DNA from: Hungatella hathewayi
GTDB lineage: Bacteria > Bacillota > Clostridia > Lachnospirales > Lachnospiraceae
NCBI RefSeq assembly: GCF_025149285.1
Contig: NZ_CP102274.1
Direction: 5' to 3' (one strand)
DNA length: 32,000 nt
Under the pieces are notes generated by a model. It made no database searches. It saw only the letters and a program-made list of their open reading frames with translations, and was not told the origin of the DNA. Of the stretch, positions 4,982 through 30,491 are shown in pieces. The translations under genes and the position numbers were made by a program. Every line of letters begins with the position of its first letter. Position 1 is the first letter of the stretch.

Positions 4982-5851
4982 CTATTTTATCAAACTAGAG
5001 TGGGGATGGGAAGAGGGCAGATCGTTAACTTTCTCAATATAGAGATTAAACAGCAGGTCAAAAAAGTAACTGACACCGTATCGGGTATATACATTTTGAA
5101 TTCCCTCGGTAATGCGGTCACTGGAATGGAATTTGTGACTGAGATAAATGACACTGTCATAGCAGGATTCAAATTTTTCGGAATGGTTGAGGGTAATCAG
5201 TACTTTGTGGGCGTGAACGTTCTGCAGATCAGTGAGTGTGGCGATAGCGTAATTACCGGTAGTGGAGGTGACAATGACCAAATCCTCAGGTTTAAGATTC
5301 CGAAGGAGATTTGTATCGGGGTAGGCGTCGGTAACAATTCGAATCAGCTTGCCGATGGCAGCCAGTCCCTGCTGCAGTACTCTTGCCGGAAAGCTTGAGA
5401 GATCTGCGGCCAGGATGACGACCTGTTCACTGTCATGAATGCGTTTGACGAGAACCTCCAGATTTTGAGAGGCAAACATCTCATTCATATCCTGCATCAT
5501 GTCATCCATGGACAGGCGAAGATACTGATCAAATTCCGGATGACAGGCGTAGTGAACAAACGCATCCATGTGCTGCCGGGTTATCGGTGCGTTCTGCTTC
5601 ATCGCAGTAAAACTCTCATAGCCGATTAGCTTGGCAAATCGTTGAATACTGCTGCGGGAAACGTAACATTCCTCTGCCACATCATAGATACTCAGTTTTT
5701 TTAATTCATGAAAATGTTCCAGCAGGTACCTTGCCAACACCAGATTGGTGTCGTCATCTTCATTGGAATTCAGGACTGCCAATAAAGATGTCATCAAATT
5801 AAAATAACTCAAACTAAAATTGTTTTGGATTTTATCTGTGCTCATAGCCAA
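4982..5851 (-). CDS. MurR/RpiR family transcriptional regulator (N-terminal HTH_6 + C-terminal SIS phosphosugar-binding domain)
   Basis: 289-aa ORF with the HTH segment SIYDVAEECYVSRSSIQRFAKLIGY and a SIS-like half (VVILAADLSS...IVTSTTGN). It is divergent from the GH1/PTS operon. The track start is TTG at 5851; ATG at 5845 is an alternative. Confidence 0.85.
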   Translation of the reverse strand: MAMSTDKIQNNFSLSYFNLMTSLLAVLNSNEDDDTNLVLARYLLEHFHELKKLSIYDVAEECYVSRSSIQRFAKLIGYESFTAMKQNAPITRQHMDAFVHYACHPEFDQYLRLSMDDMMQDMNEMFASQNLEVLVKRIHDSEQVVILAADLSSFPARVLQQGLAAIGKLIRIVTDAYPDTNLLRNLKPEDLVIVTSTTGNYAIATLTDLQNVHAHKVLITLNHSEKFESCYDSVIYLSHKFHSSDRITEGIQNVYTRYGVSYFFDLLFNLYIEKVNDLPSSHPHSSLIK

Positions 5852-5969
5852 ATCATATCACAGGTTTTTTATTCTGTCATCGGTATTCACAATAAATTCT
5901 TTTGTAATCTCCTGAAAATGCAGTAATTTTAACAAAATATGGATTCAAATCTTGCACCCCATCGTTTTC

Positions 5970-6006
5970 TTACCTTTGTTACACTGGTTATATGAAACAA
6001 AGGTAA
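5970..6006. promoter_or_regulatory. Perfect 11-bp inverted repeat in the rpiR / GH1-PTS divergent region (candidate operator or leader hairpin)
   Basis: ttacctttgtt (5970-5980) and aacaaaggtaa (5996-6006) are exact reverse complements separated by 15 nt. It ends 35 nt before the GH1 start codon and no T-run follows. Confidence 0.35.
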
Positions 6007-6041
6007 AAACGGAACACAAATTTTGAAAGGGGACATAATTT

Positions 6042-7517
6042 ATGAAGTATTCAAAGAATCCGGTATTTCCAGAAGGCTTTCTGTGGGGAGCCTCCAGCGC
6101 TGCATGGCAGGTAGAGGGGGCGACTGCCGAGGATGGCCGCACTCCTGCGATTATCGATCTGAATTCTCAGACCAAAAAGCCTTATGCAGATAATTCGGTG
6201 GCATCTGATCACTACCACCATTATAAAGAGGACGTGGCTCTGATGAAGGAATGCGGGTTTACCAGCTACCGTTTTTCTATTTCCTGGTCCCGTGTTATTC
6301 CTGCAGCGGATCGTAAGGTAAACCCTATGGGAATCGCCTTTTATAACAATCTGATCAACGAACTGCTGGCAGCGGGGATTACTCCCATTGTCACACTGTA
6401 TCACTATGATATGCCCTGCTGGGTCGATGAGAAATACGGCGGCTGGCATAACCGGGCCATTATTGATGAATTCGATTATTACTGCCATGTCTGCTTTGAG
6501 AACTTCGGTGACCGTGTAAAATACTGGCTGTCCATCAATGAGCAGAATATGCAGATTGTCTATGGCGACTGGTTAGGCGTATCCAGGGGGTGCACAGACT
6601 GGTTCAGGGAAAAGTGGCAGATCAATCACATTATGAATTTATGCCATTCCAAAGCCGTTATTGCCTGTCATGAGCTGGTAAAAGACGGAAAGATCGGTCC
6701 GGTGCCGGGATATGTACCGATTTATCCTTACTCCTGCCGGCCTGAAGACCAGATTGGCGCAATGAATGCGGAAGAACTGACACAGAAAATATGGGATGAC
6801 TTATATGTATTCCGCGAGTACAGCAGTTTCGTAAAAAATTACTGGAAAGAAAATGATATTGATCCGGACATTCGTCCCGGAGACATGGAACTGATTGGCC
6901 AGGCGAAAATCGATTTTATCGCGGTTAACTGCTATCGGTCGGATGTGGGAATGGCACCTGATGACAGCTATAAGCAGGAAATTGGTCTGAATAAATCCGG
7001 GATCAAGGGTGAATTCGTATATCCCAACCTGCCGGGCGAATATGCGCTGGCCAGAAATCCATACGTAGAAGTGACGGATTGGGACTGGCATATTGATCCT
7101 GTCTGCATGCGCTATGCACTGCGTTATCTGTGGGATCATTACCATCTGCCCATGGTTATCACGGAAGCAGGTTTTGGTGCTCATGAGGATGTGGGAGAAG
7201 ATGGTAAGATTCATGACCAGGCCCGTATTGATTATCTCAGAGAGTATGTTTATAATGTAGGTCTGGCAATTGAGGATGGGGTAGAGGTGTTCGGGTTTAA
7301 TCCCTGGTCTTTTACGGATCTTCTCAGCACCGGAAATGGTATGGCAAAACGTTATGGTCTGGTCTTTGTAAACAGGACAGACGATGATTTAAGGGATCTG
7401 AAGCGGATAAAAAAGGACTCGTTTGACTGGTATTCTGTGTTAATACGTTCTAACGGCCAGGAATGGGGAACCGATATGTCACAGTGGCGTGATTTTGCCA
7501 AAGATAAGGCAGAATAA
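6042..7517 (+). CDS. Glycoside hydrolase family 1, 6-phospho-beta-glucosidase
   Basis: 491-aa ORF starting FPEGFLWGASSAAWQVEGA. The acid/base motif is SINEQN (Glu codon 6540-6542) and the nucleophile motif is ITEAG (Glu codon 7164-7166). The C-terminal phosphate-binding block WSFTDLLS...AKRYGLVFV is typical of the phospho-specific enzymes. Confidence 0.9.
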   Translation: MKYSKNPVFPEGFLWGASSAAWQVEGATAEDGRTPAIIDLNSQTKKPYADNSVASDHYHHYKEDVALMKECGFTSYRFSISWSRVIPAADRKVNPMGIAFYNNLINELLAAGITPIVTLYHYDMPCWVDEKYGGWHNRAIIDEFDYYCHVCFENFGDRVKYWLSINEQNMQIVYGDWLGVSRGCTDWFREKWQINHIMNLCHSKAVIACHELVKDGKIGPVPGYVPIYPYSCRPEDQIGAMNAEELTQKIWDDLYVFREYSSFVKNYWKENDIDPDIRPGDMELIGQAKIDFIAVNCYRSDVGMAPDDSYKQEIGLNKSGIKGEFVYPNLPGEYALARNPYVEVTDWDWHIDPVCMRYALRYLWDHYHLPMVITEAGFGAHEDVGEDGKIHDQARIDYLREYVYNVGLAIEDGVEVFGFNPWSFTDLLSTGNGMAKRYGLVFVNRTDDDLRDLKRIKKDSFDWYSVLIRSNGQEWGTDMSQWRDFAKDKAE

Positions 7518-7538
7518 ACAGAAGGAGGGGGTACCGAT

Positions 7539-8924
7539 ATGGCGAAAAAGAATTATGCGGCAATATGCAGCTCTATCATTGCGGTATGTGGCGGTGAAGA
7601 TAATATATCCAGTGTCAGTCACTGTATGACTCGTTTACGCGTACAGCTTTTTGATGGAAACAAATTAAACAGAGAGAAAGCGGGGAAAATTCCAGGTGTT
7701 CTGAACCTGGTGATACAAAATGGTGAATATCAGTTTGTTATCGGACAGGATGTTCCAAATCTGTATGCGGAATTTATCAAACGCGAGGGGATCAAGACAA
7801 GCGGAGAAGTGGCGGATGCCGCTGCATTAAAACAGGATACGGAAGCGAAGAAGGGGAATGTAATGAATACCGTGATGTCCTTTATCGGCGGAACCTTTTC
7901 TCCGGTTATTCCGGTGTTAATTGCCGGGGGGCTTACCGGCGCCGTATTGACACTGTTGACTACGCTGTTCGGAGTATCCACAGAGTCCGGTACTTATACG
8001 GTAATCTATGCAATCAATCAGGCGACTTTTTATTTCCTTCCGATTTTCATCGGTTTTTCCGCGGCAAGCAGGTTGAAGTCCAACGGATTTTTAGGCGCCT
8101 TTTTGGGAGCAATCCTGCTGTTTTCTACTATTAATAACGTGGAGGGACTTAATTTCCTCGGGATTCCTATTCAACAGATCAGTTATAATTCCACGGTATT
8201 TCCAGTTATCCTGGGCGTGCTCTTTATGGCGGTCATTTACCGTTTTCTTTCCAGAGTGGTTCCCGTGTATCTGCGGACGATCTTTGTACCGCTGATTACG
8301 ATGCTGATTACAGTGCCTGTCACTTTGATTGTATTAGGGCCGATCGGCAACCTGATGGGAACCTGGCTGGCAAATGGTGTATTTGCCATCTACCGCGCGG
8401 CTCCTCCTGTTGCTGTTATGATTATCGGAATTACGACGCCGCTGATGGTGTTCTTTGGTATGAATAATGCGACTTATCCCATCGTATTTGCTCTGCTGGC
8501 GGAGGTCGGCTCAGACCCGCTGATCTGCACCGGTATGGCGCCGGCCAATGTAGCTGTAGGGGGAGCCTGTCTGGCGGCTGCACTGATTGCAAAGGACGTG
8601 AATGACCGGAGTGTGGCTACCGGTGCGGGTATTACTGCACTATGCGGAATTACTGAGCCGGGAGTCTATGGAGTATTGTTTACTAAGAAATATCCGTTGA
8701 TCGGCGCCATGGCCGGAGGCGGAATCGGCGGATTGCTGGGCGGTCTGGCTGGTATGACGCAGTACGTGATCTCCACTCCGGGATTTATCTCAATTCCTGC
8801 ATACATCAATCCTGATGGTACTTCGTCCAACCTGATATGGGCTATGGCAGTCATGATTCTTGCAGTAGCGGTTGCTTTTGGTGTTACTTACGTATTAGGC
8901 AGAAGAATGGAGAAACAGAGTTAG
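7539..8924 (+). CDS. PTS glucose/glucoside-family EIIBC component (no EIIA domain)
   Basis: 461-aa ORF. The N-terminal EIIB domain has the phospho-cysteine motif SHCMTRLR, followed by a polytopic EIIC domain. It starts 21 nt after the GH1 gene with SD aggaggggg. Confidence 0.9.
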   Translation: MAKKNYAAICSSIIAVCGGEDNISSVSHCMTRLRVQLFDGNKLNREKAGKIPGVLNLVIQNGEYQFVIGQDVPNLYAEFIKREGIKTSGEVADAAALKQDTEAKKGNVMNTVMSFIGGTFSPVIPVLIAGGLTGAVLTLLTTLFGVSTESGTYTVIYAINQATFYFLPIFIGFSAASRLKSNGFLGAFLGAILLFSTINNVEGLNFLGIPIQQISYNSTVFPVILGVLFMAVIYRFLSRVVPVYLRTIFVPLITMLITVPVTLIVLGPIGNLMGTWLANGVFAIYRAAPPVAVMIIGITTPLMVFFGMNNATYPIVFALLAEVGSDPLICTGMAPANVAVGGACLAAALIAKDVNDRSVATGAGITALCGITEPGVYGVLFTKKYPLIGAMAGGGIGGLLGGLAGMTQYVISTPGFISIPAYINPDGTSSNLIWAMAVMILAVAVAFGVTYVLGRRMEKQS

Positions 8925-11080: not shown

Positions 11081-11125
11081 TTGACATTGCTCATGTAATG
11101 TGCTATTGTATGAATGTACAAAATA
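11081..11125 (+). promoter_or_regulatory. yhfZ-like gene promoter plus candidate operator
   Basis: TTGACA (11081-11086), 17 nt, TATTGT (11104-11109). The 13-mer AATGTACAAAATA (11113-11125) recurs exactly at 12384-12396. Confidence 0.45.
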
Positions 11126-11165
11126 ATGAATATTGAAATAATGACGAATAAAAGCAGGTATACAG

Positions 11166-12098
11166 ATGGAATATGAAGTTGGAAAGAGCATCTTATATCA
11201 AAAAACCGGATTAGCCAAGAGTCTCCTTGCATTAGATTTACTGTCAAAGAATGCAGGGGACAGAATACAGCCCATATCCGAGTATCAGGAGAAGTTTGGA
11301 GTATCCAGAGGGACTGTCCAGAATGCTTTTACATATTTAAAAGAGTGTGGCGCTGTGAAACTGGAGCACCACGGTCACCAGGGTACTTATATCGAAAAGC
11401 TGGACTATCGCAAGCTTCAGGAAAACTGTATGAGAAAAGAGCTGCTGGGCATCATGCCGCTGCCGTATTCACTGACTTATGAGGGGTTTGCCACAGCAAT
11501 TTACTCGGAACTGGATGAGCTGAATTTTAATATGGCGTACGCGAGAGGCGCGGTTGGCAGAATCGAGCTTGTAGAGTCGGGAACCTATCAATTTGCCGTC
11601 TGTTCACGCTATGCCGCGGAGCAGTCCATCAGCTGCGGGAAAGAGATCGAGATAGCCTTTGATTTCGGGCCGGGAAGCTTTCTGTCAAAACACGTACTTC
11701 TTCTGGCTGATGAATCAAAAGACGGTATCTGTGATGGTATGAAGGTCGCATACGACAGCAAGTCTCTTGACCAGAGCCGTATAACAGATAATATCGTTAA
11801 GGGAAAAGAGATAACTTTAATTCCAATCAGGACACAGCAGACCATCGGGGCTCTGATGGATGGGACCATAGACGCCGGTGTGTGGAATTATGACGATGTA
11901 TTGGAGAATCATCACGACAGACTGAAGGTGGTTTCGCTGCCGGAATCGGACTATAATAATTCCTTTTCCACTGCAGTTCTGGTGATAAAGACGGGCGACG
12001 AAGCACTGAAGGCACTGCTTAAAAAATATATAAGTGTGGAACGCGTATTGGGAATTCTTTCTGAAGTCAGAGAGAAGAGGCGGGAGCCGTTCTTCTGA
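11166..12098 (+). CDS. yhfZ: YhfZ-family regulator (GntR-like winged HTH + C-terminal ligand-binding-like domain)
   Basis: 310-aa ORF with the GntR-type HTH ISEYQEKFGVSRGTVQNAFTYLKECGAV. Its size and its position at the head of a yhfY/T/U/S/X/W-type gene set match E. coli YhfZ (about 300 aa, from memory). Confidence 0.8.
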   Translation: MEYEVGKSILYQKTGLAKSLLALDLLSKNAGDRIQPISEYQEKFGVSRGTVQNAFTYLKECGAVKLEHHGHQGTYIEKLDYRKLQENCMRKELLGIMPLPYSLTYEGFATAIYSELDELNFNMAYARGAVGRIELVESGTYQFAVCSRYAAEQSISCGKEIEIAFDFGPGSFLSKHVLLLADESKDGICDGMKVAYDSKSLDQSRITDNIVKGKEITLIPIRTQQTIGALMDGTIDAGVWNYDDVLENHHDRLKVVSLPESDYNNSFSTAVLVIKTGDEALKALLKKYISVERVLGILSEVREKRREPFF

Positions 12099-12233
12099 CC
12101 GGAGAGAAAGCGCTATATTAGCGTCTTATCTTCTGCGGTGGACCGCAGATCAAGGGCAGCCGTGGGCAGAAGGTATCCGCAGTGGAATTCTGGCAGATGT
12201 TTGTCACACCTGTTACGGCTGCCGGCGGCTTTC

Positions 12234-12284
12234 CCGGCTCATCAGCTTTCAGGTCTCATCAGCTTTCCCGGCTCATCAGCCAAT
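12234..12284. repeat. Three tandem 17-bp units in the yhfZ-yhfY intergenic region
   Basis: The units are ccggctcatcagctttc (12234-12250), aggtctcatcagctttc (12251-12267) and ccggctcatcagccaat (12268-12284). The 19-mer gctttcccggctcatcagc occurs twice, at 12228 and 12262. Confidence 0.8.
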
Positions 12285-12375
12285 CGGCCAGTCAGCCGTA
12301 CTGACAATCTGAATAGAATATAAGAAACCGGGATAGTGGGTGGAGTGTCGTAAAAAATAAGTCAGGACAGAAATT

Positions 12376-12405
12376 TTTACAGCAATGTACAAAATATTGT
12401 ATATT
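12376..12405 (+). promoter_or_regulatory. Candidate promoter of the yhfY-W operon with the shared 13-mer in its spacer
   Basis: TTTACA (12376-12381), 18-nt spacer, TATATT (12400-12405). AATGTACAAAATA (12384-12396) lies inside the spacer. Confidence 0.4.
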
Positions 12406-12419
12406 AAGAAAGGAGTATT

Positions 12420-12782
12420 ATGAACCTGGAGGAAGCGTTAAATCAGCGTCTTGAGATTCTTTTAAACAGTGGTGTCATATCACAGAGAATTTCAGATTAT
12501 TGCAAAACAGCAGTGAAGCTGCTGATAAAACAAAAACCGGAGGCAGACGGCGACAGGGCTGCTATGTTTATTACACATCTGGCTATGGCGGGACAGAGAA
12601 TTTTAGAGGGAAAGGAGGAAAAACCATTGGATGGCCAGATTCTGGAGTCTGTAAAACAGGAACCTGCTTATAGTAAGGCATTGGACTTTCTGACGTATAT
12701 GCTGAATCAGACAGATCTGGAATTTCCGGATACAGAAAAAGATTTTTTGACGGTTCATCTGTGTAACCTGTTTATGCCATGA
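12420..12782 (+). CDS. yhfY: YhfY-family PRD-domain-only protein
   Basis: 120-aa all-helical ORF, the same length as E. coli YhfY. Two His residues sit in PRD-like contexts, FITHLAMAG (His53, 12576-12578) and LTVHLCNLF (His113, 12756-12758), 60 residues apart. Confidence 0.8.
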   Translation: MNLEEALNQRLEILLNSGVISQRISDYCKTAVKLLIKQKPEADGDRAAMFITHLAMAGQRILEGKEEKPLDGQILESVKQEPAYSKALDFLTYMLNQTDLEFPDTEKDFLTVHLCNLFMP

Positions 12783-12867
12783 GTTTGAAGGCCGTGATGT
12801 AGAGAGTATGCTTACGGGGATGAGATGCTGCAGGAGTATTGAAATTTAAAATTCAGGAGGGAAAAAT

Positions 12868-14148
12868 ATGCGGTATATAGTTATATTTTTAGCCGGAGCG
12901 TTTGGGGCACTTTTGGCTAACAGGGGAATTGCGGTTTTTAATGATGCGGTCAGGCCGGTTGTTCCGGAATACAGAGAGGGACGTATGACAAGGCTGGAAT
13001 TTGCAACAACCACATTTGCCTTAAGCTTTGGTCTGGTCATTGGATTTGGAATACCTTATTCGATTATGTCACCCATTATACTGGTACATTCTCTGTGGCT
13101 TGGAACCGATGTTATCGGTATCTTCTTTCCGGCAAAAAACATTGAAAAATGGTACCTGGACAAAGAAAGCCTGATCGGCGCCGGCCTTTCCGTTCTGGCA
13201 GGTGGTCTGTACGGAGTGCTTCTGCTGGCGGGGCTTCAGAGCTTTGTCAATATGATGCAGGCTCTGCCGGTTAATATCTTCGATGCATGGCAGAATATTT
13301 CCGGCCCTGTCATTTCCGCATTTATTGCGTTCCCATGTGTTGTAATTACCATGGATTACGGTTGGAAAAAGGGTCTTGTTTCACTGGTTGTTTCGGTTCT
13401 GCTTCGCCAGATCATGGTATTTTTCGGAAAAGGAGATATCGCGGACGGTGTTGCCTTATTAACCGGCCTCGTGTTCATCATTGTATTTGCAGTCAGGGAC
13501 AAATCTGAATCGACGGGAAATCTGGCTTCTATATTTGGAGACCGTGTGAAGAACATCAGAAAGAATATCATCTGGATTGCAATTATGGGTGCCATTTACG
13601 GACTTGCCTGCAATATGCATCTCCTGATGGAAGGTCCGCAGTCTCTGGTTGCATTAAAGGATGGAAATGTGTCTTCTGCAGTCAGCATCAGCTTTGCGAG
13701 AGCGCTGTCCTTTATCCCATTAAAGGCGCTGACCTCGCTGACGACAGGCACCTTTGTAACGGATGGCTTCGGTTTCACCGCAACAGCAGGCCTTCTGGCT
13801 CCAAACGGAGTGCTTGCCGCAGTATTTGGCGCAGTGGTCATGTCTCTGGAGGCATTGTCTCTGGCAGTAGTTGCAAAGCTGTTTGATAAGGTTCCAAGTA
13901 TTAAGAAATCGGCCGACAGTATCCGTGTGGCGATGACCAGGCTTCTGGAGGTTGCCATTTTAGTGGGATCCATGTCGGCGGCGGAAGGTATGGCCCCCGG
14001 ATTTGGATTTTTGGTAGTTGGTGGATTCTTTGTCATGAATGAGTATTTTAAGAAACCAATCGTACGGATGGCAGTAGGCCCGATCGCTGTTATCGCAGTG
14101 GGAGTTCTGGTCAATGTACTGGCAGTTTTAGGTCTGTACAGTGTTTAA
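12868..14148 (+). CDS. yhfT: YhfT-family polytopic inner-membrane protein (putative transporter)
   Basis: 426-aa ORF, highly hydrophobic with about 11 TM segments. The N-terminal block AVFNDAVRPVVPEYREGRMTRLE resembles my recollection of E. coli YhfT (AVFHDGIRPILPQLIEGYMNRRE). SD caggaggg. Confidence 0.82.
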   Translation: MRYIVIFLAGAFGALLANRGIAVFNDAVRPVVPEYREGRMTRLEFATTTFALSFGLVIGFGIPYSIMSPIILVHSLWLGTDVIGIFFPAKNIEKWYLDKESLIGAGLSVLAGGLYGVLLLAGLQSFVNMMQALPVNIFDAWQNISGPVISAFIAFPCVVITMDYGWKKGLVSLVVSVLLRQIMVFFGKGDIADGVALLTGLVFIIVFAVRDKSESTGNLASIFGDRVKNIRKNIIWIAIMGAIYGLACNMHLLMEGPQSLVALKDGNVSSAVSISFARALSFIPLKALTSLTTGTFVTDGFGFTATAGLLAPNGVLAAVFGAVVMSLEALSLAVVAKLFDKVPSIKKSADSIRVAMTRLLEVAILVGSMSAAEGMAPGFGFLVVGGFFVMNEYFKKPIVRMAVGPIAVIAVGVLVNVLAVLGLYSV

Positions 14149-14182
14149 ATGTGTGCAGTGATGCGTGAAAGGAGCAGTCAGC

Positions 14183-14539
14183 ATGAAAATTGTAATTGGC
14201 GGACAGATGGGAAAAGAGGAAATAAAAGATCTGATAGTCACGACTATGGGAACTGAATGTGAGGTTGCCATCCGGGATGATGTGGCAGCTGCCATGGATG
14301 TAAAGAGCGGAAATGCCGACTTATATCTGGGGGCATGTATGACCGGGGGCGGAGGCGCACTTGCGATGGCCATTGCAATTTTGGGTTATGGAGCGTGTAT
14401 GACGGTAAGTGACGCGGATGAAAATGCCATTCGTGACGCACTGAAATCGGGGAAAAAGGCGTTTGGTTTTACCCCATCCATGTCGAGAACGGTGGTTCCA
14501 GTGATTGTAAGGCTTGCGAAGGATGCTGTGAAGAATTGA
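14183..14539 (+). CDS. yhfU: YhfU-family protein (DUF2620)
   Basis: 118 aa from ATG 14183. The aaaggag SD lies inside the longer GTG-started track ORF. It begins MKIVIGGQMGKEE, has a duplicated GACMT motif (Cys codons 14336 and 14396), and matches the size of E. coli YhfU (117 aa). Confidence 0.78.
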   Translation: MKIVIGGQMGKEEIKDLIVTTMGTECEVAIRDDVAAAMDVKSGNADLYLGACMTGGGGALAMAIAILGYGACMTVSDADENAIRDALKSGKKAFGFTPSMSRTVVPVIVRLAKDAVKN

Positions 14540-14620
14540 GATGATGGTGCTGTCTGGTTTAAAGAGATGATATACCGTGTCTTCTTAGCCAGCCAGACAG
14601 CATCCGTGAAAGGAGAAAGG

Positions 14621-15715
14621 ATGCAGACATATCCGTTACAGAGCATGTCCGTGGAAGAAGCAGCGATGCTTCAGTTCCAGGTAGTGGACTGTATAACAAA
14701 AGTATTTGAAGGGCATGAATCACTGACCAGGGGAGATTTAGGGGTCGTCATGGGGATTAATATGCCGGTGACAACCAGAAAAGCGGAAAAGGTGATTGCC
14801 GAAGTATTTGGAGCAGAGGCGTGTATCCTGGTACGGGGGGCGGGGAGTGCCGCAATCCGTTTTGGACTTCATTCCATGATGGGGCCCGGCGACCGGCTCC
14901 TGGTACACCGGGCTCCCATCTATAATACTACGGCAGCCTCTCTCGAAATGATGGGAATAGAAGCGGTGGAAGCTGATTTTAATGATTCGAAAGAAATCCG
15001 GCGGGTTTTGACGGATAATCCCGATATTAAGGGGGCGCTGGTCCAATATACGAGACAGCTCCCGGAAGACCGCTATGATATGCATGAGGTAGTACGCGTC
15101 ATCAAACAGACCGCTGATATCCCTGTACTGACCGACGACAATTACGCAGCAATGAAAGTAAAAGATATCGGTGTGCAGTGCGGTGCGGATCTTTCCTGCT
15201 TTTCCGCGTTTAAGCTGCTGGGGCCGGAAGGTGTGGGCGTCATCGTCGGTAAGCAGGAACTGGTCGGCAGACTGGTAAAGGAAAGTTATTCCGGCGGGAT
15301 GCAGGTACAGGGGCATGAGGCGCTCGATGTTCTGCACGGAATGGTCTATGCGCCGGTCTCCCTGGCTCTTTCTGCGAGGGTCAATGAGGAATGTGTCAGA
15401 CGCTTGAACAGCGGAGAGATACCGGCGGTAAAACAGGCATTTCTGGCAAATGCCCAATCTAAGGTTCTTCTGGTGGAATTCAGGGAGAATATTGCGGAAC
15501 GGGTACTGGAGGAAGCCGAAAAATCGGGCGCTGCACCGAATCCGGTTGGCGCGGAATCCAAATATGAGCTGGTACCCATGTTTTACCGGATTTCCGGTAC
15601 GTTTCGCAAGGCAGATCCGGAACTGGAACATCGGATGATACGGATCAATCCCATGCGGGCCGGAGCGGACACTGTTTTAAGAATAATAAAAGAATCAGTA
15701 GAAAGAGTGGTGTAA
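14621..15715 (+). CDS. yhfS: YhfS-family fold-type-I PLP-dependent enzyme (SelA/aminotransferase-like)
   Basis: 364 aa from ATG 14621, which has SD aaaggagaaagg. The candidate PLP-lysine motif FSAFKLLGPEGVG closely resembles the SelA motif SGDKLLGGPQAG. The size matches E. coli YhfS (361 aa). Confidence 0.82.
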   Translation: MQTYPLQSMSVEEAAMLQFQVVDCITKVFEGHESLTRGDLGVVMGINMPVTTRKAEKVIAEVFGAEACILVRGAGSAAIRFGLHSMMGPGDRLLVHRAPIYNTTAASLEMMGIEAVEADFNDSKEIRRVLTDNPDIKGALVQYTRQLPEDRYDMHEVVRVIKQTADIPVLTDDNYAAMKVKDIGVQCGADLSCFSAFKLLGPEGVGVIVGKQELVGRLVKESYSGGMQVQGHEALDVLHGMVYAPVSLALSARVNEECVRRLNSGEIPAVKQAFLANAQSKVLLVEFRENIAERVLEEAEKSGAAPNPVGAESKYELVPMFYRISGTFRKADPELEHRMIRINPMRAGADTVLRIIKESVERVV

Positions 15716-16873
15716 ATGTTCCTGGAACAAACTGTAAAACGGAATCCGGAACTGGTCCGGCTGGCATTCAGTCTCCACAGGCAGGGAATCATAGAACCGG
15801 ATTCCTATCTCATTGATGTGGACACCTTTTTGCAAAATGCGGAGGAAATGCTGGAGTGCTCCAGGCAAAATGGCGTAAAGCTTTACTTTATGCTGAAACA
15901 GCTGGGGCGCAATCCCTATCTGGCAAAGGAGCTGATGAGGCTGGGATATTCCGGCGCGGTGGCTGTTGACTATAAAGAGGCCGCCGTAATGATGGAGCAT
16001 GGGATTCCGATCGGAAATGCAGGGCATCTGGTACAGATACCGACGGCTCAGGTAAGACAGATTGTCTCCTGCCGCCCGGAGGTCATCACCGTCTACTCAG
16101 AAGAGAAAATACACCAGATTGATCAGGCCGCGTCGGAACTGGGCGTGATACAGGAAATTCTGCTGCGGGTGTATGGTGAAGGTGATATGATTTATTCCGG
16201 GCAGACAGCCGGTTTTCATTTAAATACCCTGGAAGAACTGGCGGATCGTATCGTTGGTTCATATCCCCATGTGAGAATTGCGGGTGTCACCTCTTTTCCC
16301 TGTTACTTATATGATGAGCAGCTGGATGACATCGTTCCTACGGCTAATTTAAAAACCGTAACGCGTGCGGTAGCAATCTTAAAGTCGCGGGGAATTCTCT
16401 GCCGTATCATCAATACTCCCTCAGCAACCTGCTGTCGTACCATTGAACGGATGAAGCGGGACGGGGGAAATTGTGGTGAGCCGGGACATGGCTTTTCCGG
16501 AACAACCCCCATGCATGCCGCCCATGAACTGCCGGAACGACCGTGTGTAGTTTACATAAGTGAAGTTTCTCATAATTTCGAAGGCCGCGGATACTGTTTT
16601 GGAGGCGGTCATTACAGGCGATCCCATATGAAGAATGCATTGGTAGGAGACAGTTTTTTAAATGCTAGGCACGTGGAGGTAATTCCTCCGGCGGATGACA
16701 GTATTGATTACCATTTCGGATTAACAAAAGAGTGCCCTGTAGGCCAGACGGTGGTGATGGCGTTTCGGTATCAGATATTTGTTACCCGTTCAGATGTTGT
16801 GCTGGTCACCGGACTTAGAAAGGGAGCGCCGAGGATTGAAGGAATCTATGACAGCGCGGGCAGAGAGAAATGA
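15716..16873 (+). CDS. yhfX: YhfX-family fold-type-III PLP enzyme (alanine-racemase-like N-terminal barrel)
   Basis: 385-aa ORF. Its ATG directly follows the yhfS stop codon (15713-15715). The early candidate PLP lysine YFMLKQLGRNP and the overall size match E. coli YhfX (387 aa). Confidence 0.82.
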   Translation: MFLEQTVKRNPELVRLAFSLHRQGIIEPDSYLIDVDTFLQNAEEMLECSRQNGVKLYFMLKQLGRNPYLAKELMRLGYSGAVAVDYKEAAVMMEHGIPIGNAGHLVQIPTAQVRQIVSCRPEVITVYSEEKIHQIDQAASELGVIQEILLRVYGEGDMIYSGQTAGFHLNTLEELADRIVGSYPHVRIAGVTSFPCYLYDEQLDDIVPTANLKTVTRAVAILKSRGILCRIINTPSATCCRTIERMKRDGGNCGEPGHGFSGTTPMHAAHELPERPCVVYISEVSHNFEGRGYCFGGGHYRRSHMKNALVGDSFLNARHVEVIPPADDSIDYHFGLTKECPVGQTVVMAFRYQIFVTRSDVVLVTGLRKGAPRIEGIYDSAGREK

Positions 16874-18081
16874 AGAAGAGATTTATTGTTATTATACTGG
16901 ATGGATTTGGGATCGGGGCGATGAAGGATGCCTGTATCGTGAGGCCGGGCGATGAAACAGCCAACACGCTCGGAAGTATTTTAAAGGACTCCCCCGACAT
17001 GAAGCTGCCGGTCCTGGAACGGCTGGGGCTGATGAATGCGTTCGGGAGGGAGAGCGCAGCCATGAAATTCAGCCCTTCCGCTAATTACGGGAGATGCGAA
17101 CTGATGCACTATGGTGCGGATACTTTTATGGGGCATCAGGAAATCATGGGAACACTGCCAATAAAACCGACGGCGCATCCATTTCTGGAGAAGGCGGAGG
17201 AGGTAAGCCGGTATTTGAGGCAGAACGGGCATGATGTCCATGTTATCGAGAAACAGGGGCTTAAATATCTGATTGTAGATCGGTACGCCACGGTGGCAGA
17301 CAACCTGGAGGCGGATCCGGGAATGTGCTATAATGTGACGGCGCCTCTTGATTTTATGCCGTTTGAGGAAGAGGTGGAGATCGCCCGCCTGGTCCGCGAG
17401 GTAGTGACCGTGGGCCGTGTGATCGTGTTTGGCGGCACCGGCAACACAATGGAAGATTTGCAGAGGGCGGAAGAGATAAAGCTTGGAAATTATATCGGCA
17501 TTGCATCTGCAAAATCAAAATCGTATGAGCACGGTTATCAGTGCAGACATCTGGGATATGGAGTGGATAAACAGGTACAGGCGCCGACCATACTGACAAA
17601 TGCCGGGGTTCACTGTACGCTCATAGGGAAGGTGGCTGACATTGTGGCTAATGACGGCGGTGAGAGTATTTCCTGCGTCCCGACGGAGGAAGTGATGCGG
17701 CTTACGGTTCAGGCGGTAAAGAACATGGAGAAGGGCTTTGTCTGTACCAATGTGCAGGAGACCGATCTGGCGGGTCATTCACAATCTGCGGCGGCTTACC
17801 GGGAGATACTGGAGACCGCGGACCGGGGAATCGGTGCAGTGCTGGAGGAGATGGAGGCGGAAGATATCCTGGTTGTCATGGCAGACCACGGTAATGATCC
17901 CAATATCGGGCACAGCCGGCATACGAGGGAATGCGTGCCGTTACTCATTTATACAAGGGGGATGAGCGGACGGGAGATTGGTACCAGAAAGACACTTTCG
18001 GATGTTGGGGCATCTGTATGCAGTTTTTTTGGGGTGAAGAGTACGCAGAATGGGACGTCATTTCTAGAAGATCTTCGTTGA
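16870..18081 (+). CDS. yhfW: YhfW-family phosphopentomutase-like metalloenzyme (DeoB / alkaline-phosphatase superfamily)
   Basis: 403-aa ORF with an ATGA overlap onto yhfX. The N-terminal metal/phospho-acceptor block VIILDGFGIGAMKDA resembles DeoB MVLDSFGIGA. The C-terminal block VVMADHGNDPNIGHSRHTRE resembles DeoB TADHGCDP. Confidence 0.85.
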   Translation: MKKRFIVIILDGFGIGAMKDACIVRPGDETANTLGSILKDSPDMKLPVLERLGLMNAFGRESAAMKFSPSANYGRCELMHYGADTFMGHQEIMGTLPIKPTAHPFLEKAEEVSRYLRQNGHDVHVIEKQGLKYLIVDRYATVADNLEADPGMCYNVTAPLDFMPFEEEVEIARLVREVVTVGRVIVFGGTGNTMEDLQRAEEIKLGNYIGIASAKSKSYEHGYQCRHLGYGVDKQVQAPTILTNAGVHCTLIGKVADIVANDGGESISCVPTEEVMRLTVQAVKNMEKGFVCTNVQETDLAGHSQSAAAYREILETADRGIGAVLEEMEAEDILVVMADHGNDPNIGHSRHTRECVPLLIYTRGMSGREIGTRKTLSDVGASVCSFFGVKSTQNGTSFLEDLR

Positions 18082-18315: not shown

Positions 18316-18993
18316 ATGTCCAAATCCCCTCATACTTCGGAATTCCGTGCAAAGGTGTCACAGGAATACCTTGATGGATTGGGTTCCTATAATTATTTAG
18401 CCACTAAATATAATATCGGGTGTAAAACATTGAAAGAGTGGGTTGCTAAATACAGAATTCATGGAATCGGAGCATTTATTCGTAAAACGGGGAATGCTTC
18501 TTACTCATCCGATTTTAAAACCATGTGTGTCGAAGCGGTTTTATCTGGTGATGGAAGCGTAGATGATATCGCTGCTAAATATAACATTTCTTCAAGAAGG
18601 GTACTCAGCCAATGGGTTGTGAGTTATAATGCCAATAGAGAACTTAAGGATTATGTTCCGAAAAGGGAGGTCTATATGGCAGAGGCCAGAAGAAAAACAA
18701 CCGTTGCTGAACGCAAAGAAATCGTTGAGTATTGTATTAAACATAACCATGATTATAAAGGGACTGCAGGCATTTATAACGTTTCATACAGCCAGGTTTA
18801 TTCCTGGGTAAAAAAGTATGATGTGAATGGAGAAGACGGTTTAACAGATAAACGCGGCCATCACAGAGCAGATAATGAAGTGGATGAACTGGAGCGTTTA
18901 CGGCGGGAAAATCTCAGGTTGAAACGCCAGCTGGAAGAAAAGGATAAGGCTGTTGAACTACTAAAAAAAGTGAAAGAATTCGAAAGGATGTGA
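18316..18993 (+). CDS. IS3-family transposase OrfA (multiple HTH motifs + leucine-zipper-like C-terminus)
   Basis: 225-aa ORF with SD taggaggt. It has repeated HTH-like segments (YLATKYNIGCKTLKEWVAKY, DIAAKYNISSRRVLSQWV, TAGIYNVSYSQVYSWVKKY) and a coiled-coil ELERLRRENLRLKRQLEEKDKAVELLKK. Confidence 0.9.
   Translation: MSKSPHTSEFRAKVSQEYLDGLGSYNYLATKYNIGCKTLKEWVAKYRIHGIGAFIRKTGNASYSSDFKTMCVEAVLSGDGSVDDIAAKYNISSRRVLSQWVVSYNANRELKDYVPKREVYMAEARRKTTVAERKEIVEYCIKHNHDYKGTAGIYNVSYSQVYSWVKKYDVNGEDGLTDKRGHHRADNEVDELERLRRENLRLKRQLEEKDKAVELLKKVKEFERM
18963..18969 (+). other. Programmed -1 ribosomal frameshift heptamer (A AAA AAA g) for the OrfAB fusion
   Basis: An A7G run sits in orfA frame as cta.aaa.aaa.gtg. 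The -1 (orfB) frame is open from 18957, after the stop at 18954-18956, so slippage here reads through ...KK|SERIRKDVKLGKL... into orfB. Confidence 0.7.
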
Positions 18994-19955
18994 AGCTTGG
19001 AAAGCTGCGTTACGAATCAAAATATTTAGCAATCAGACATTTCCATGAAACAGAGCAGTGGAGCATTGCATGGATGTGCAAACAGCTTGAAATCTCAAGG
19101 GCGGCTTATTATAAATGGCTGGACCGGGAGATTCCGAAACAGGAATCGGAAAATCTTAAGCTGGCAGAACTGATTAAAGAATACGATCAACGCTTTGGCC
19201 ATATCTTAGGCTATCGAAGAATGACTTCATGGGTCAATCGCTTTAACCATACTGCTTATGGAAAAAAGCGGGTACATCGGATTATGAAGAAACTGGGTAT
19301 TCAATCTGTAATCAGAAAGAAAAAGAAAAAATATGTATCTTCTCCCCCGGAAACAACCGCAGAAAACAAGCTATGCAGGGATTTTTATGCGTCTGCACCA
19401 AACCAGAAATGGTCTACAGATGTAACTGAGTTTAAAATACCGGGCGAAAAAAAGAAGCTGTATCTAAGTGTAATCATTGATTTATATGACCGATACCCTG
19501 TTTCCTATGTAATCAGCAGCCGGAATGATAATCAACTGGTGTTTAAAACATTTGATAAGGCGGTGATCTCCAATCCGAACGCAGCGCCGATTTTTCATAG
19601 TGACAGAGGTTTTCAATATACGAGCAGAGTGTTTCAGAAGAAACTAAAGGAACATGAAATGGAACAATCCATGTCAAGAGCAGGACACTGTATTGATAAT
19701 GGCCCCACAGAAGGTTTCTGGGGAATTATAAAATCAGAAATGTATCAGATGTATGAAATTACTGATGAAACGACATTGAGACATGCAATAAAGGAATATA
19801 TGAAGTTTTATAGCGCAGAACGTCCTCAAGACAGGTATCATTGTAAGACACCGTTAGAAGTAAGGAATGAGGCAATCGCTGCTGAACATCCAGAAGAATA
19901 CCCTATTCCTAAAAACAAGCGAATCGAAAAATATAAAGAAAAATGGTGTGCATAG
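18990..19955 (+). CDS. IS3-family transposase OrfB (DDE / rve integrase core)
   Basis: 321-aa ORF with the DDE triad contexts WSTDVTEF, IFHSDRGFQYTS and IDNGPTEGFWGIIK. It is in the -1 frame relative to orfA. Confidence 0.9.
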   Translation: MKLGKLRYESKYLAIRHFHETEQWSIAWMCKQLEISRAAYYKWLDREIPKQESENLKLAELIKEYDQRFGHILGYRRMTSWVNRFNHTAYGKKRVHRIMKKLGIQSVIRKKKKKYVSSPPETTAENKLCRDFYASAPNQKWSTDVTEFKIPGEKKKLYLSVIIDLYDRYPVSYVISSRNDNQLVFKTFDKAVISNPNAAPIFHSDRGFQYTSRVFQKKLKEHEMEQSMSRAGHCIDNGPTEGFWGIIKSEMYQMYEITDETTLRHAIKEYMKFYSAERPQDRYHCKTPLEVRNEAIAAEHPEEYPIPKNKRIEKYKEKWCA

Positions 19956-25333: not shown

Positions 25334-26074
25334 CTATTTACAGCAGTCGCCAAGTTTCGCGAGGGCAGCTTCGTCTGCTACGATTGTTACATCCGGATGC
25401 AGCTGTAAAATGGAAGCAGGAACGCGAGGAGTAACCGGACCGCAGATCACTTCCCGTAAGATGGCAGCCTTATCCTCGCCGCTTACTACCAGCAGGATCT
25501 TTTTTGCACTCATGATGGTTCCGATTCCCATGGTGTAAGCCTGACGCGGAACGTCATCGATGGAAGCGAAGAAACGCTTGTTTGCTTCGATGGTACTTTC
25601 CTGTAAATCAACGATATGAGTTTCCTTCGGATACTCATCGGCCGGCTCATTAAAGCCGATGTGACCGTTGTGGCCGAGGCCTAAAAGCTGGAGGTCTACG
25701 CCGCCTAACTCATGGACTACATTTTCATAGCGCGCACACTCTTTTGCAGCGTCCGGCTCTGTGCCATCAGGGATATTGGTGTTCTCTTCCTTGATATTGA
25801 CATGCTTGAACAGATTCTCATGCATAAAATAGTAGTAGCTTTGATCGTTATCTCTTGTCAGTCCTTTATATTCATCCAGATTGGCAGTCTTTACTTCAGC
25901 AAAATCCAGATCACCGTTGTTGTACCATTCAATCAACTGCTTGTAGGTTCCGATCGGTGTGGAACCTGTAGCGAGTCCCAGTACGCAGTCTGGTTTCATG
26001 ATAACCTGAGCGGAAATAATGTGTGCCGCTTTGCGGCTCATGTCATTGTAATCCTTTGCGCGGTAAAGTCTCAT
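25334..26074 (-). CDS. nagB: Glucosamine-6-phosphate deaminase
   Basis: The blocks MRLYRAKDY...VLGLATGSTPIGTYKQLIE...ANLDEYKGL...LLGLGHNGHIGFNEP are the canonical NagB motifs. The start is set at ATG 26074, which has GGAGGG 7 nt upstream, rather than the track start at 26089. Confidence 0.92.
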   Translation of the reverse strand: MRLYRAKDYNDMSRKAAHIISAQVIMKPDCVLGLATGSTPIGTYKQLIEWYNNGDLDFAEVKTANLDEYKGLTRDNDQSYYYFMHENLFKHVNIKEENTNIPDGTEPDAAKECARYENVVHELGGVDLQLLGLGHNGHIGFNEPADEYPKETHIVDLQESTIEANKRFFASIDDVPRQAYTMGIGTIMSAKKILLVVSGEDKAAILREVICGPVTPRVPASILQLHPDVTIVADEAALAKLGDCCK

Positions 26075-26193
26075 TTTATAGCCCTCCATGTTCTTGAAAA
26101 AAAATTTTATTCCATTTATAGCTTTAGGATAACATTTTTATGGCATAGTTTCAATGGCTATTTGCATAAAATATTTATAAAAGGGGTGATATC

Positions 26194-29917: not shown

Positions 29918-30180
29918 CCGTGCAGCCGGGGAGATAGCGGTGCCCTGTACCTGCAATCCGCTCCAGCAGGGGTGATGTCTCACCTCGGATCGTCTACTGC
30001 AGGGCTGCCCCTGATAAGTGGCGATGACGTTTGGGTCTTACGCAACAGGAATTCATGAACCGTGTCAGGGCAGGAATGCAGCAGCACTAAGTGGAACCTC
30101 CTGTGTGCCGTGAGGCAGCCTGGACTGAGTTAACTGTCAGGGTAACGCCTGTGGTAACGATACAAAGTGAGACGCACGGA
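29918..30180 (+). ncRNA. ffs: Signal recognition particle RNA, long Bacillus-type (scRNA with Alu domain)
   Basis: ccgtgcagccggggagatagcggtgccctgtacctgcaatccgctccagcagggg is nearly identical to the B. subtilis scRNA 5' Alu domain as I remember it. The domain IV core is gtcagggcaggaatgcagcagc. The 5' ccgtgc pairs with the 3' gcacgg (30174-30179). Its position between tadA and dnaX is the classical Firmicute synteny. Confidence 0.9.
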
Positions 30181-30427: not shown

Positions 30428-30491
30428 TATGTACAAAATGGGTATATAGTATCTATTTCCTAAACATGAATCTAAGAAGGGGTGTGCTTTG

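Follow-up and report, generated by a model that had tools for sequence, protein, structure and literature searches.

We analysed a 32-kb stretch of the Hungatella hathewayi genome (32,000 nucleotides of contig NZ_CP102274.1, assembly GCF_025149285.1; hereafter, the window) and, within it, a cluster of seven genes at positions 11166-18081 that are homologs of yhfZ, yhfY, yhfT, yhfU, yhfS, yhfX and yhfW of E. coli K-12. Our preferred interpretation, to which we assign slightly less than even confidence, is that two transcription units, yhfZ and yhfY-T-U-S-X-W, make up a substrate-inducible system for the catabolism of a phosphorylated amino compound, which would be linked to the phosphotransferase system (PTS) and repressed by YhfZ. 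Catabolism of such a compound had already been suggested in the initial annotation of this DNA. The suggestion is consistent with the presence of ptsH/ptsI, NagB and 2-keto-3-deoxy-6-phosphogluconate (KDPG) aldolase in related clusters.

The seven open reading frames (ORFs) are tightly packed, all on the + strand; the genes, strand and product lengths listed in the initial annotation matched the ORFs of the window exactly. The first gene, yhfZ (11166-12098; 310 aa), codes for a protein in which a DNA-binding domain of the HTH_41/GntR type is combined with a YhfZ_C domain. It is followed by yhfY (12420-12782; 120 aa), coding for a single PRD domain, by yhfT (12868-14148; 426 aa), whose product is a polytopic membrane protein and presumed permease of a php-independent subtype described below, and by yhfU (14183-14539; 118 aa), coding for a small alpha/beta protein of the DUF2620 family. 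The last three products are a fold-type I pyridoxal phosphate (PLP) enzyme (yhfS, 14621-15715; 364 aa), a fold-type III PLP enzyme with an alanine-racemase-type barrel and the YhfX C-terminal domain (yhfX, 15716-16873; 385 aa), and a phosphopentomutase-like metalloenzyme, a putative phosphomutase (yhfW, 16870-18081; 403 aa).

For two of the genes the mechanical list of ORFs has earlier starts, GTG 14165 for yhfU and ATG 14567 for yhfS. The shorter versions chosen in the initial annotation are the better choice, because ribosome-binding sites of the GGAG type precede both ATG 14183 (AAAGGAG) and ATG 14621 (GGAG). The TAA codon of yhfS (15713-15715) directly abuts the ATG of yhfX at 15716, and yhfX and yhfW share an ATGA overlap at 16870-16873. 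Both junctions had been described before, and all the motifs quoted along with them were found in the ORF products.

Profile searches against Pfam and NCBIfam, with scores above the curated cut-offs of the diagnostic models, placed all seven products in named families, in agreement with the initial assignments. YhfZ matched YhfZ_C (9.5e-58) and HTH_41 (2.2e-16, 59 bits) in Pfam and the equivalog YhfZ_full in NCBIfam (379 bits vs the cut-off of 260); the score of the Pfam GntR model, PF00392, was under its cut-off. The Pfam matches of the other proteins were PRD for YhfY (4.1e-08), YhfT for YhfT (1.5e-128), DUF2620 for YhfU (4.6e-34), YhfS-like_C (2.3e-45) plus Aminotran_5 for YhfS, YhfX-like_C (1.3e-36) plus Ala_racemase_N for YhfX, and Metalloenzyme for YhfW (8.3e-41), the latter with 572.7 bits in NCBIfam PRK12383 (cut-off 254). 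In BLASTP alignments all seven proteins matched their E. coli K-12 namesakes over full length with 27-53% identity, the value for YhfZ being 27%.

With a YhfT alignment we retrieved 79 loci from one-genome-per-species contigs, predicted their ORFs and used the seven window proteins as queries against these; three metagenome loci (L086-88) were examined besides the 79 genome loci. All seven genes were present in 49 of the 79 loci, and T, U, S, X and W occurred together in 62. The taxa with the cluster include Clostridia, Negativicutes, Erysipelotrichales, Thermotogae, Fusobacteria/Leptotrichia and Chloroflexi, as well as Brevinema, Enterococcus, Vagococcus, Pasteurellaceae and Enterobacterales. 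Gene order varies among the clades, with adjacency kept for U-T (68/73 loci), X-W (61/62) and Z-Y (49/52). In the window the seven genes adjoin one another and run in the same direction, and as a set they recur across taxa.

Dependence of the yhf system on phosphotransfer driven by phosphoenolpyruvate (PEP), be it to the substrate or to the regulator alone, is likely, because YhfY is a PRD with a conserved His53, ptsH and ptsI occur in or beside the clusters of three or four lineages, YhfU is found fused to a PRD, and the seven-gene core has a phosphomutase and no kinase. YhfY is a lone PRD with no nucleic-acid-binding domain, and it aligns with the PRD2 region of LicT. We observed His53 in 60 of 60 orthologues. 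The second canonical histidine, His113, was present in 42 of the 60, with Asn in 16, E. coli among them.

PRDs of the LicT family are phosphorylated directly by HPr. YhfY resembles the PRD-containing PTS regulators (LicT/BglG, MtlR/LicR) in the alignment with the LicT PRD2 and in keeping the phosphorylatable histidine. Unlike these regulators, it has neither an RNA-binding nor a DNA-binding domain, and binding to DNA would come from a separate GntR-type protein, YhfZ. Also in contrast to PRD antiterminators, no ribonucleic antiterminator (RAT) or terminator element and no Rfam match were found for the yhfY region.

The genes ptsH and ptsI, coding for HPr and Enzyme I (EI), lie inside the cluster of Allofournierella (L007), in the order Z-HPr-EI-X-W-Y-U-S-T. 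Two Thermotogae (L026, L027) have them immediately behind the cluster, and a high-GC environmental lineage (L086-88) has them in the operon. The DUF2620-PRD fusion occurs on 14 contigs, in three near-identical versions. A read-through can be discounted, because U precedes the PRD in the fusion, whereas the genes usually have the order Y-U; the fusion recalls the layout of MtlR/LicR, a PRD together with an EIIB-like domain. On three environmental contigs its neighbourhood reads YhfT - SDR - unknown - (GntR/UTRA, opposite strand) - U-PRD fusion - YhfW - YhfX - HPr - EI - KDPG aldolase, with YhfS nearby, and on these contigs yhfX overlaps at its end with the HPr gene. In L086 and L088 the gene after ptsI is that of KDPG aldolase. 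This environmental variant (L086, 291-12672; L087; L088) also carries a 2-hydroxyacid dehydrogenase and a cupin-type glucose-6-phosphate isomerase, and a GntR/UTRA regulator takes the place of YhfZ.

A second line of evidence concerns regulation. A TGTACAAAATATTGTACA-like palindrome overlaps both promoter-like sites of the window. The site predicted upstream of yhfZ (11081-11109, + strand) consists of TTGACA, a 17-nt spacer and TATTGT with a TG extension, 10 of 12 positions matching the consensus; Box 1 (AATGTACAAAATAATGAATATT; 11113-11134, + strand) starts 4 nt after its -10 hexamer. The site predicted for yhfY-T-U-S-X-W (12376-12405, + strand) consists of TTTACA, 18 nt and TATATT, again with 10 of 12 consensus matches, and Box 2 (AATGTACAAAATATTGTATATT; 12384-12405, + strand) lies across its spacer and -10 hexamer. 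Box 2 is the near-palindrome TGTACAA-N4-TTGTATA and the box core is TGTACAA-N4-TTGTAYA. The 22-nt box AATGTACAAAATAWTGWATATT occurs exactly twice in the window, and its 18-nt core has 2 matches there vs 0.03 expected. Palindromes of the GT...AC type are usual for GntR-type regulators.

In H. effluvii both boxes are kept in place and Box 2 is identical, with the rest of the Z|Y spacer unrelated. The same 18-mer was found directly upstream of yhfZ or yhfY in Thermoanaerobacter, in Clostridium hydrogeniformans and in an uncultured Clostridia genome. Allowing up to 3 mismatches, we counted 26 copies of the box in the 108 kb around cluster gene starts compared to 11 in the other 934 kb, a 20-fold enrichment. 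The copies near gene starts were mostly located before yhfZ (16) and yhfY (9); at 4 mismatches the box also appeared before yhfU and php in the Enterococcus-type arrangement. Since the palindrome recurs upstream of yhfZ or yhfY in distant taxa, it is probably the operator of YhfZ.

The combination of an N-terminal winged helix-turn-helix (HTH) and a conserved palindrome at its own promoter and at the target promoter is as expected for a GntR-family repressor. The position of the boxes relative to the promoters, the sole evidence on this point, suggests that YhfZ would repress its own gene as well as yhfY-W. The YhfZ_C domain is probably the ligand-binding part.

A riboswitch or RAT-type antitermination in the 321-nt yhfZ|yhfY spacer was also considered. 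We rejected it because Rfam at gathering thresholds gave only a signal recognition particle (SRP) RNA elsewhere, YhfY has no RNA-binding domain, and the H. effluvii spacer is conserved only at the box. A weak terminator-like hairpin after yhfZ (12110-12134, + strand) came from a pattern scan and is weak evidence, because the number of such sites in the region was not above that in shuffles. The spacer also contains three tandem copies of the 17-nt unit GCTTTCCCGGCTCATCA (12228-12280, spacing 17), absent from the H. effluvii spacer.

The three enzymes retain the residues characteristic of their folds. In YhfS, the PLP residues Lys198 (in the SAFK motif) and Asp172 and two C-terminal arginines, Arg341 and Arg346, are conserved; the best PDB match is 4J8L (3.5e-122), followed by methionine gamma-lyase and Cys-Met PLP enzymes (1e-10), so that YhfS is nearest to beta/gamma-lyases, not to DgaE. 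YhfX has an invariant PLP lysine, Lys61, and the alanine-racemase fold-type III barrel (PF01168, 44.7 bits vs 24.1). After 4KBX (1.3e-107), its next PDB matches are alanine racemases (6e-5) and D-threonine / D-3-hydroxyaspartate aldolases (4e-4 to 2e-3), and by these scores it appears about equally distant from both groups.

YhfW matched the PDB phosphopentomutase 3M8W (1e-30), and the alignment shows that it keeps the metal ligands and the Thr/Ser nucleophile of this enzyme. Conserved in 61 orthologues were D11, D84, T85 (T in 48, S in 13), D299, H303, D339, H340 and H351, with the roles of metal ligands and phospho-acceptor assigned by analogy with the phosphopentomutase of B. cereus. YhfW fails the DeoB equivalog models, with 134.7 bits vs 341.2 for TIGR01696 and 184.5 vs 256 for PRK05362.

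For YhfU two readings have to be weighed. Forty homologues share an invariant Y-x-G-A-C-x-T-G-G-G-G-A-x-A-M-A stretch, which contains the loop Cys52-x-Thr54-GGGG. The AlphaFold2 model (mean predicted local distance difference test, pLDDT, of 94) is an alpha/beta sandwich that has Cys52 where strand 3 ends. The best PDB folds in Foldseek are the isomerases RpiB/LacAB (template modelling score, TM, of 0.62-0.66; E from 4.5e-4), then flavodoxins and receiver domains. YhfU has its Cys-x-Thr loop after beta-strand 3, and C52/T54 align with Cys66/Thr68 of E. coli RpiB, the catalytic pair of that enzyme, in an hhalign alignment that is not significant (E 0.077). Unlike RpiB, YhfU has an invariant GGQ in place of the GxDH motif after beta-strand 1, is ~30 residues shorter and has no C-terminal third.

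Sequence-level homology of YhfU to RpiB or EIIB was rejected, given no Pfam RpiB match and the non-significant hhalign result. A search with the DUF2620 profile of 1.84 billion representatives yielded 176 matches, and there were no RpiB-type or EIIB-type proteins among the best 150, which were inspected. Ten longer or atypical matches scanned with Pfam were all DUF2620 with no RpiB domain, some of them fused to other cluster domains. The DUF2620 family is thus by these searches small and isolated, since the matches listed among the 176 were DUF2620-sized proteins, fragments or fusions. YhfU weakly matched Gly_rich_SFCGS (E 4e-4) as well as TIGR03577; among DUF2620 proteins, many match the Pfam models of both DUF2620 and Gly_rich_SFCGS.

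In one of the two readings YhfU would be an EIIB-like phospho-carrier acting through Cys52; it is favoured by the U-T adjacency, the U-PRD fusion and the missing kinase. In the other one, favoured by the modelled fold and the Cys/Thr alignment, YhfU would be an RpiB-like isomerase.

The php gene, coding for a phosphotriesterase (PTE) family protein, offers a clue to the uptake step. As the initial annotation stated, php is absent: a tblastn search with E. coli Php gave nothing with E below 5 in the entire window. Among the survey loci php was found in 56, always beside yhfT or yhfU. It is an accessory gene, not a defining one, because only 37 of the 49 complete clusters have it. The proposal that its absence helps to define a minimal core holds as far as the core is concerned, with seven genes in 49 of 79 loci and 12 of these 49 without php. 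It needed refinement in that the absence is not a random loss and tracks the YhfT subtype.

Scored against the window YhfT, the YhfT proteins of php-less clusters had at least 466 bits, and the php-linked ones had at most 373 bits. The sole exception is Atlantibacter hermannii (L060), with a complete php-less cluster and a YhfT score of 310. The W-U gap of ~830 bp in this genome (L060 8692-9526) has no php-length ORF; related Enterobacterales have php there, and the Atlantibacter gene may have decayed, possibly into a pseudogene. Three loci (L011, L019, L025) carry two yhfT paralogues, one of each subtype, with php adjoining the subtype distant from that of the window. In L019 and L025, an NYN-domain gene lies between the second yhfT and yhfU.

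The mean identity of the window YhfT was 45% (max 49%) to php-linked and 59% to php-less counterparts. The enzymes showed the opposite tendency, being closer to those of php-linked clusters: 56% vs 51% for YhfS, 47% vs 44% for YhfX and 49% vs 44% for YhfW. Therefore, php behaves, judging from sequence comparison, as a module tied to the uptake step rather than to the enzyme core, since its presence tracks the YhfT subtype and not YhfS, YhfX or YhfW.

The Php protein of L075 matches the phosphotriesterase-related model, and its second-best NCBIfam model is phospho-furanose lactonase, at 100 bits vs a cut-off of 630. Characterised members of the phospho-furanose lactonase family, the enzymes of M. 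synoviae and M. agalactiae, hydrolyse phosphorylated sugar lactones (PMC10971088). The Php proteins of related yhf clusters belong to the same PTE family as these PTS-linked lactonases. They score far under the cut-off of the lactonase model, however, and the window has no php. Possibly, YhfT of the php-linked type takes in a ring form, e.g. a lactone, and the window subtype an open form.

The pathway that we propose, as well as its substrate and the direction of regulation, is inferred from what was observed directly, that is, gene content, families, residues, operator conservation and gene neighbourhoods. YhfZ would bind the palindromic box at both promoters and repress both. Its C-terminal domain together with YhfY, through His53, would lift the repression given the substrate and a permissive phosphorylation state of the PTS. 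YhfT would take up the compound, in the case of the window subtype probably in a form that needs no ring opening, e.g. as the free acid rather than the lactone. YhfU, with its Cys52 loop, would act either as an EIIB-like phospho-carrier fed by HPr, the substrate entering the cell phosphorylated, or as an RpiB-like isomerase. Entry of an already phosphorylated substrate is suggested because there is no kinase in the seven-gene core.

Inside the cell YhfW would shift the phosphate, YhfX would invert or cleave at the alpha-carbon, and YhfS would carry out PLP-dependent elimination and deamination. The product, possibly a keto-deoxy-sugar-acid phosphate or a hexosamine phosphate, would pass into central metabolism. 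Such products are suggested by the KDPG aldolase in L086 and L088 and by a bona fide nagB (TIGR00502, 310 bits vs the cut-off of 237) directly after yhfW in 5 loci. By analogy with D-glucosaminate, the substrate could be a sugar-derived alpha-amino acid, e.g. a 2-amino-2-deoxy-aldonate; our confidence in this is roughly one in four.

The analogy comes from Salmonella, where D-glucosaminate is taken up by the DgaABCD PTS to give the 6-phosphate, the PLP ammonia-lyase DgaE converts the latter to KDPG, and the aldolase DgaF splits KDPG (PMC9529869). The yhf system would follow the same logic, with an amino compound taken up in dependence on the PTS and a PLP enzyme of fold-type I; the L086/L088 variant also has a KDPG aldolase in the operon. 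On the other hand, DgaABCD is a mannose-family PTS unrelated to YhfT, YhfS is not of the DgaE family, and the yhf system includes, in addition, a second PLP enzyme, of fold-type III, along with a phosphomutase, a PRD protein and a GntR-type regulator.

The SFCGS cluster, which combines a small Cys/Gly-rich protein, membrane proteins, an amidohydrolase, a DgaE-family enzyme and a KDGP aldolase (PMC11934601), is another precedent. The layout of this SFCGS/DUF4312/DUF4311/DUF4310 cluster, found in an E. faecium composite transposon (EF_0830/AHA_3911 family), is parallel to that of yhf, with the weak match of YhfU to Gly_rich_SFCGS as a further likeness. Its membrane components are, however, of other families, it has no YhfX or YhfW, and it is also uncharacterised.

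Several observations weigh against our interpretation. The association with ptsHI is confined to 3 of the 79 genome loci and the L086-88 lineage and is absent from the cluster of the window and from E. coli. No cluster examined encodes an EIIA, and a direct transfer from HPr to YhfU is, to our knowledge, without precedent. The best fold of YhfU is that of an isomerase, RpiB, with no PTS EIIB among its top 50 fold matches. YhfT, whose AlphaFold2 model is all-helical (pLDDT 79), has no PDB fold match (best E 0.09, TM below 0.2) and no Pfam family besides YhfT even at E<=10, and some yhfT genes stand alone with no yhfU or PTS genes nearby. The idea that YhfT is a relative of a known transporter or of EIIC was rejected given this lack of Pfam and PDB fold matches.

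With respect to the enzymes, YhfS is not a member of the DgaE family, scoring 17 bits vs the cut-off of 385 for TIGR01437 and 25 vs 304 for TIGR03576. If the terminal carbon is phosphorylated by the PTS to begin with, YhfW is left without an evident role, and the reaction of YhfX is likewise unexplained; the mechanism is inferential throughout. KDPG aldolase and NagB imply different end products, each in few lineages. In E. coli no copy of the palindrome was found upstream of yhfZ.

A bolder and more tentative extension of the PTS-linked interpretation is that YhfT and YhfU form a PTS Enzyme II family that has escaped recognition. It would combine a permease fold unlike solved structures with an RpiB-fold carrier that receives its phosphate from HPr, on Cys52; YhfU would also signal to a split regulator, YhfY plus YhfZ, and a phosphorylated amino-sugar acid would be fed into a new pathway in which a mutase works together with two PLP enzymes. 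If true, such a permease family would extend a system considered well catalogued.

Among the alternatives, the best surviving one, though on balance doubtful, restricts the PTS to regulation. The operon would still be catabolic, with YhfT as a secondary carrier and YhfU as an RpiB-like sugar-phosphate isomerase using its Cys/Thr pair; HPr would phosphorylate YhfY only, and the kinase would be elsewhere or the substrate would be imported phosphorylated. No missing EIIA is needed here, since PRDs are, as is generally known, phosphorylated directly by HPr. Such a role of YhfU agrees with RpiB/LacAB as its best folds and with C52/T54 aligned to Cys66/Thr68 of RpiB. A yhfT without yhfU does exist, and PfkB-family kinases are located near the cluster in 5 loci. 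Yet YhfU has no RpiB C-terminal third and no Pfam or significant profile match to RpiB. The U-T adjacency (68/73) and the U-PRD fusion suggest a YhfU that faces the transporter or the regulator and is not a pathway enzyme. Besides, ptsH and ptsI inside an operon would be odd if they served regulation alone.

An unlikely but still countable candidate is the catabolism of glycated amino acids (Amadori or Heyns compounds), with YhfU interconverting the aldose and ketose forms and NagB-like chemistry freeing the sugar phosphate. The initial annotation had named this possibility on the basis of the neighbouring frl genes in E. coli. The yhf cluster of E. coli does adjoin frlABCDR, nagB follows yhfW in 5 loci, and the fold of YhfU is RpiB-like. 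This adjacency, the sole basis of the original guess, is however confined among the Enterobacteria to E. coli and relatives, where the two gene sets converge and share no operon. Among the genes that recur near the cluster in the 79 loci we identified neither an FrlB-type deglycase nor an FrlD-type kinase, the core itself has no deglycase or kinase, and the known deglycase pathways have no role for two PLP enzymes and a phosphomutase. The guess therefore stays as a minority candidate.

We consider it slightly less likely still that the system salvages an amino-sugar fragment that comes from the cell wall or contains D-amino acids. In such a scheme YhfX would be a racemase, amidase-like and PBP4B-like accessory proteins would trim peptide or acyl groups, and NagB would finish the sugar. 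An amidase signature family-like protein of ~360 aa recurs in 28 loci, a PBP4B/AmpH-like serine hydrolase in 9 and nagB in 5, and YhfX is nearest to alanine racemases. Nevertheless, the cluster of the window and E. coli lack all of these accessory genes, the recurrent neighbours include no genes of the MurQ, NagA or NagK type, and Php and KDPG aldolase do not fit.

A pentose or nucleoside pathway, with YhfW as a true ribose-1-P / ribose-5-P mutase and YhfU as an RpiB-type pentose-phosphate isomerase, is very improbable: YhfW retains all phosphopentomutase catalytic residues, PfkB kinases occur in 5 loci and a nucleoside hydrolase upstream in 4, but YhfW fails the deoB equivalog (135 bits vs 341), the two PLP enzymes are left unexplained and the nucleoside hydrolase is limited to one Lactobacillales clade (Enterococcus, Streptococcus, Carnobacteriaceae).

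The system as such is a known orphan, with families named, two structures solved and a copy present in E. coli K-12; for these reasons the window should be seen as a variant and not as a new kind of system. In E. coli K-12 the order is yhfZ-yhfY-yhfX-yhfW-php-yhfU-yhfT-yhfS (b3383-b3376), adjoining frlABCDR. The order and the frl adjacency were correctly given in the initial annotation, as were the protein lengths, to the residue (301, 120, 434, 117, 361, 387 and 408 for Z, Y, T, U, S, X and W). The yhf and frl gene sets converge and are not one operon. Both the E. coli and the window clusters are co-directional, tightly packed and without assigned function.

The window variant differs from the E. 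coli cluster in the order Z-Y-T-U-S-X-W (with T-U instead of U-T), in having no php and no adjoining frl operon, and in the subtype of YhfT, which is 33% identical to E. coli YhfT. The palindromic box of Firmicutes is not evident upstream of E. coli yhfZ.

In the open-access PMC and bioRxiv literature we found no published biochemical or physiological assignment of the yhf cluster, so that within this literature the earlier statement that no substrate has been established holds. RefSeq labels the E. coli yhf genes putative or uncharacterized, the PDB entries 4J8L (YhfS) and 4KBX (YhfX) were deposited under the title uncharacterized, and papers of 2025-2026 still call YhfZ and YhfW putative. 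Published phenotypes come from screens only, a peptide-resistance screen for a yhfZ knockout and an antibiotic-survival screen for yhfW, with no biochemistry. In a 2009 array study yhfZ was listed as a weak sigma-54 candidate; sigma-54 controls dga and gfr in Salmonella.

Of the multi-gene blocks of E. coli K-12 that have no assigned function, the yhf cluster is one of the larger. The comparative clues do not solve this function; they make it testable, with a probable operator, a possible phosphorelay (EI, HPr, Cys52 of YhfU, His53 of YhfY), a possible explanation of why only some versions have php, and candidate substrates. Foremost among the latter are amino-sugar acids and the lactones of these, followed by Heyns/Amadori compounds and fragments of the cell wall.

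Further observations concern the neighbourhoods of the cluster in other genomes. In Chloroflexi (L020, L023, L024) yhfW is followed by genes of an MttB-family methyltransferase and a B12-binding corrinoid protein; in L020 (11835-13920) the start of the methyltransferase gene overlaps the yhfW stop. These neighbours are hints that the substrate may be N-methylated in this clade. A stand-alone yhfT without the other six genes was found in L009, L010, L013, L021 and L046. In the Erysipelotrichaceae among them (L009, L010, L013) it lies among unrelated genes, e.g. those of riboflavin kinase, DUF2500, DUF885 and AcnX. Such loci had been considered as a source of PTS partner genes and were rejected given these unrelated neighbours (riboflavin kinase, DUF885, AcnX).

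H. effluvii DSM 24995 has the same cluster, with a YhfT 98% identical to that of the window. The exact sequence of the window YhfW was indexed in 515 blocks of a collection of metagenomes and assemblies, including many gut-metagenome contigs; therefore, the version seen in the window is common in gut samples. Directly 3' of yhfW the window carries an IS3-family element (18316-19955) with orfA (225 aa, HTH domains) and orfB (321 aa, rve integrase core) overlapping at 18990-18993. In H. effluvii (L004) genes of an ATP-binding cassette (ABC) transporter come directly after yhfW; because no transposase-sized ORF lies in between, the element in the window looks like a recent insertion. It is also carried by the gut-metagenome contigs L001 and L002.

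Elsewhere in the window KDPG aldolase, ptsH and ptsI were not found. A nagB-like gene at 25334-26089 (- strand), whose product is 49% identical to the NagB located after yhfW in Clostridium sp. OS1-26 (L031), lies outside the operon, at a distance of 7 kb from the cluster and on the other strand. The host has a conventional PTS, as follows from a separate beta-glucoside-type unit at 4982-8924, with an RpiR-family regulator (- strand), a GH1 6-phospho-beta-glucosidase-like gene (6042-7517) and a PTS EIIBC (7539-8924). At the left end, an MCRA-family protein of the fatty-acid hydratase family (186-1919, 682 bits) is followed by a family-5 solute-binding protein (2110-3783). Toward the right end, the bacterial large SRP RNA (Rfam RF01854, 194.7 bits) was located at 29918-30179, with a phosphofructokinase gene then at 30489-31571.

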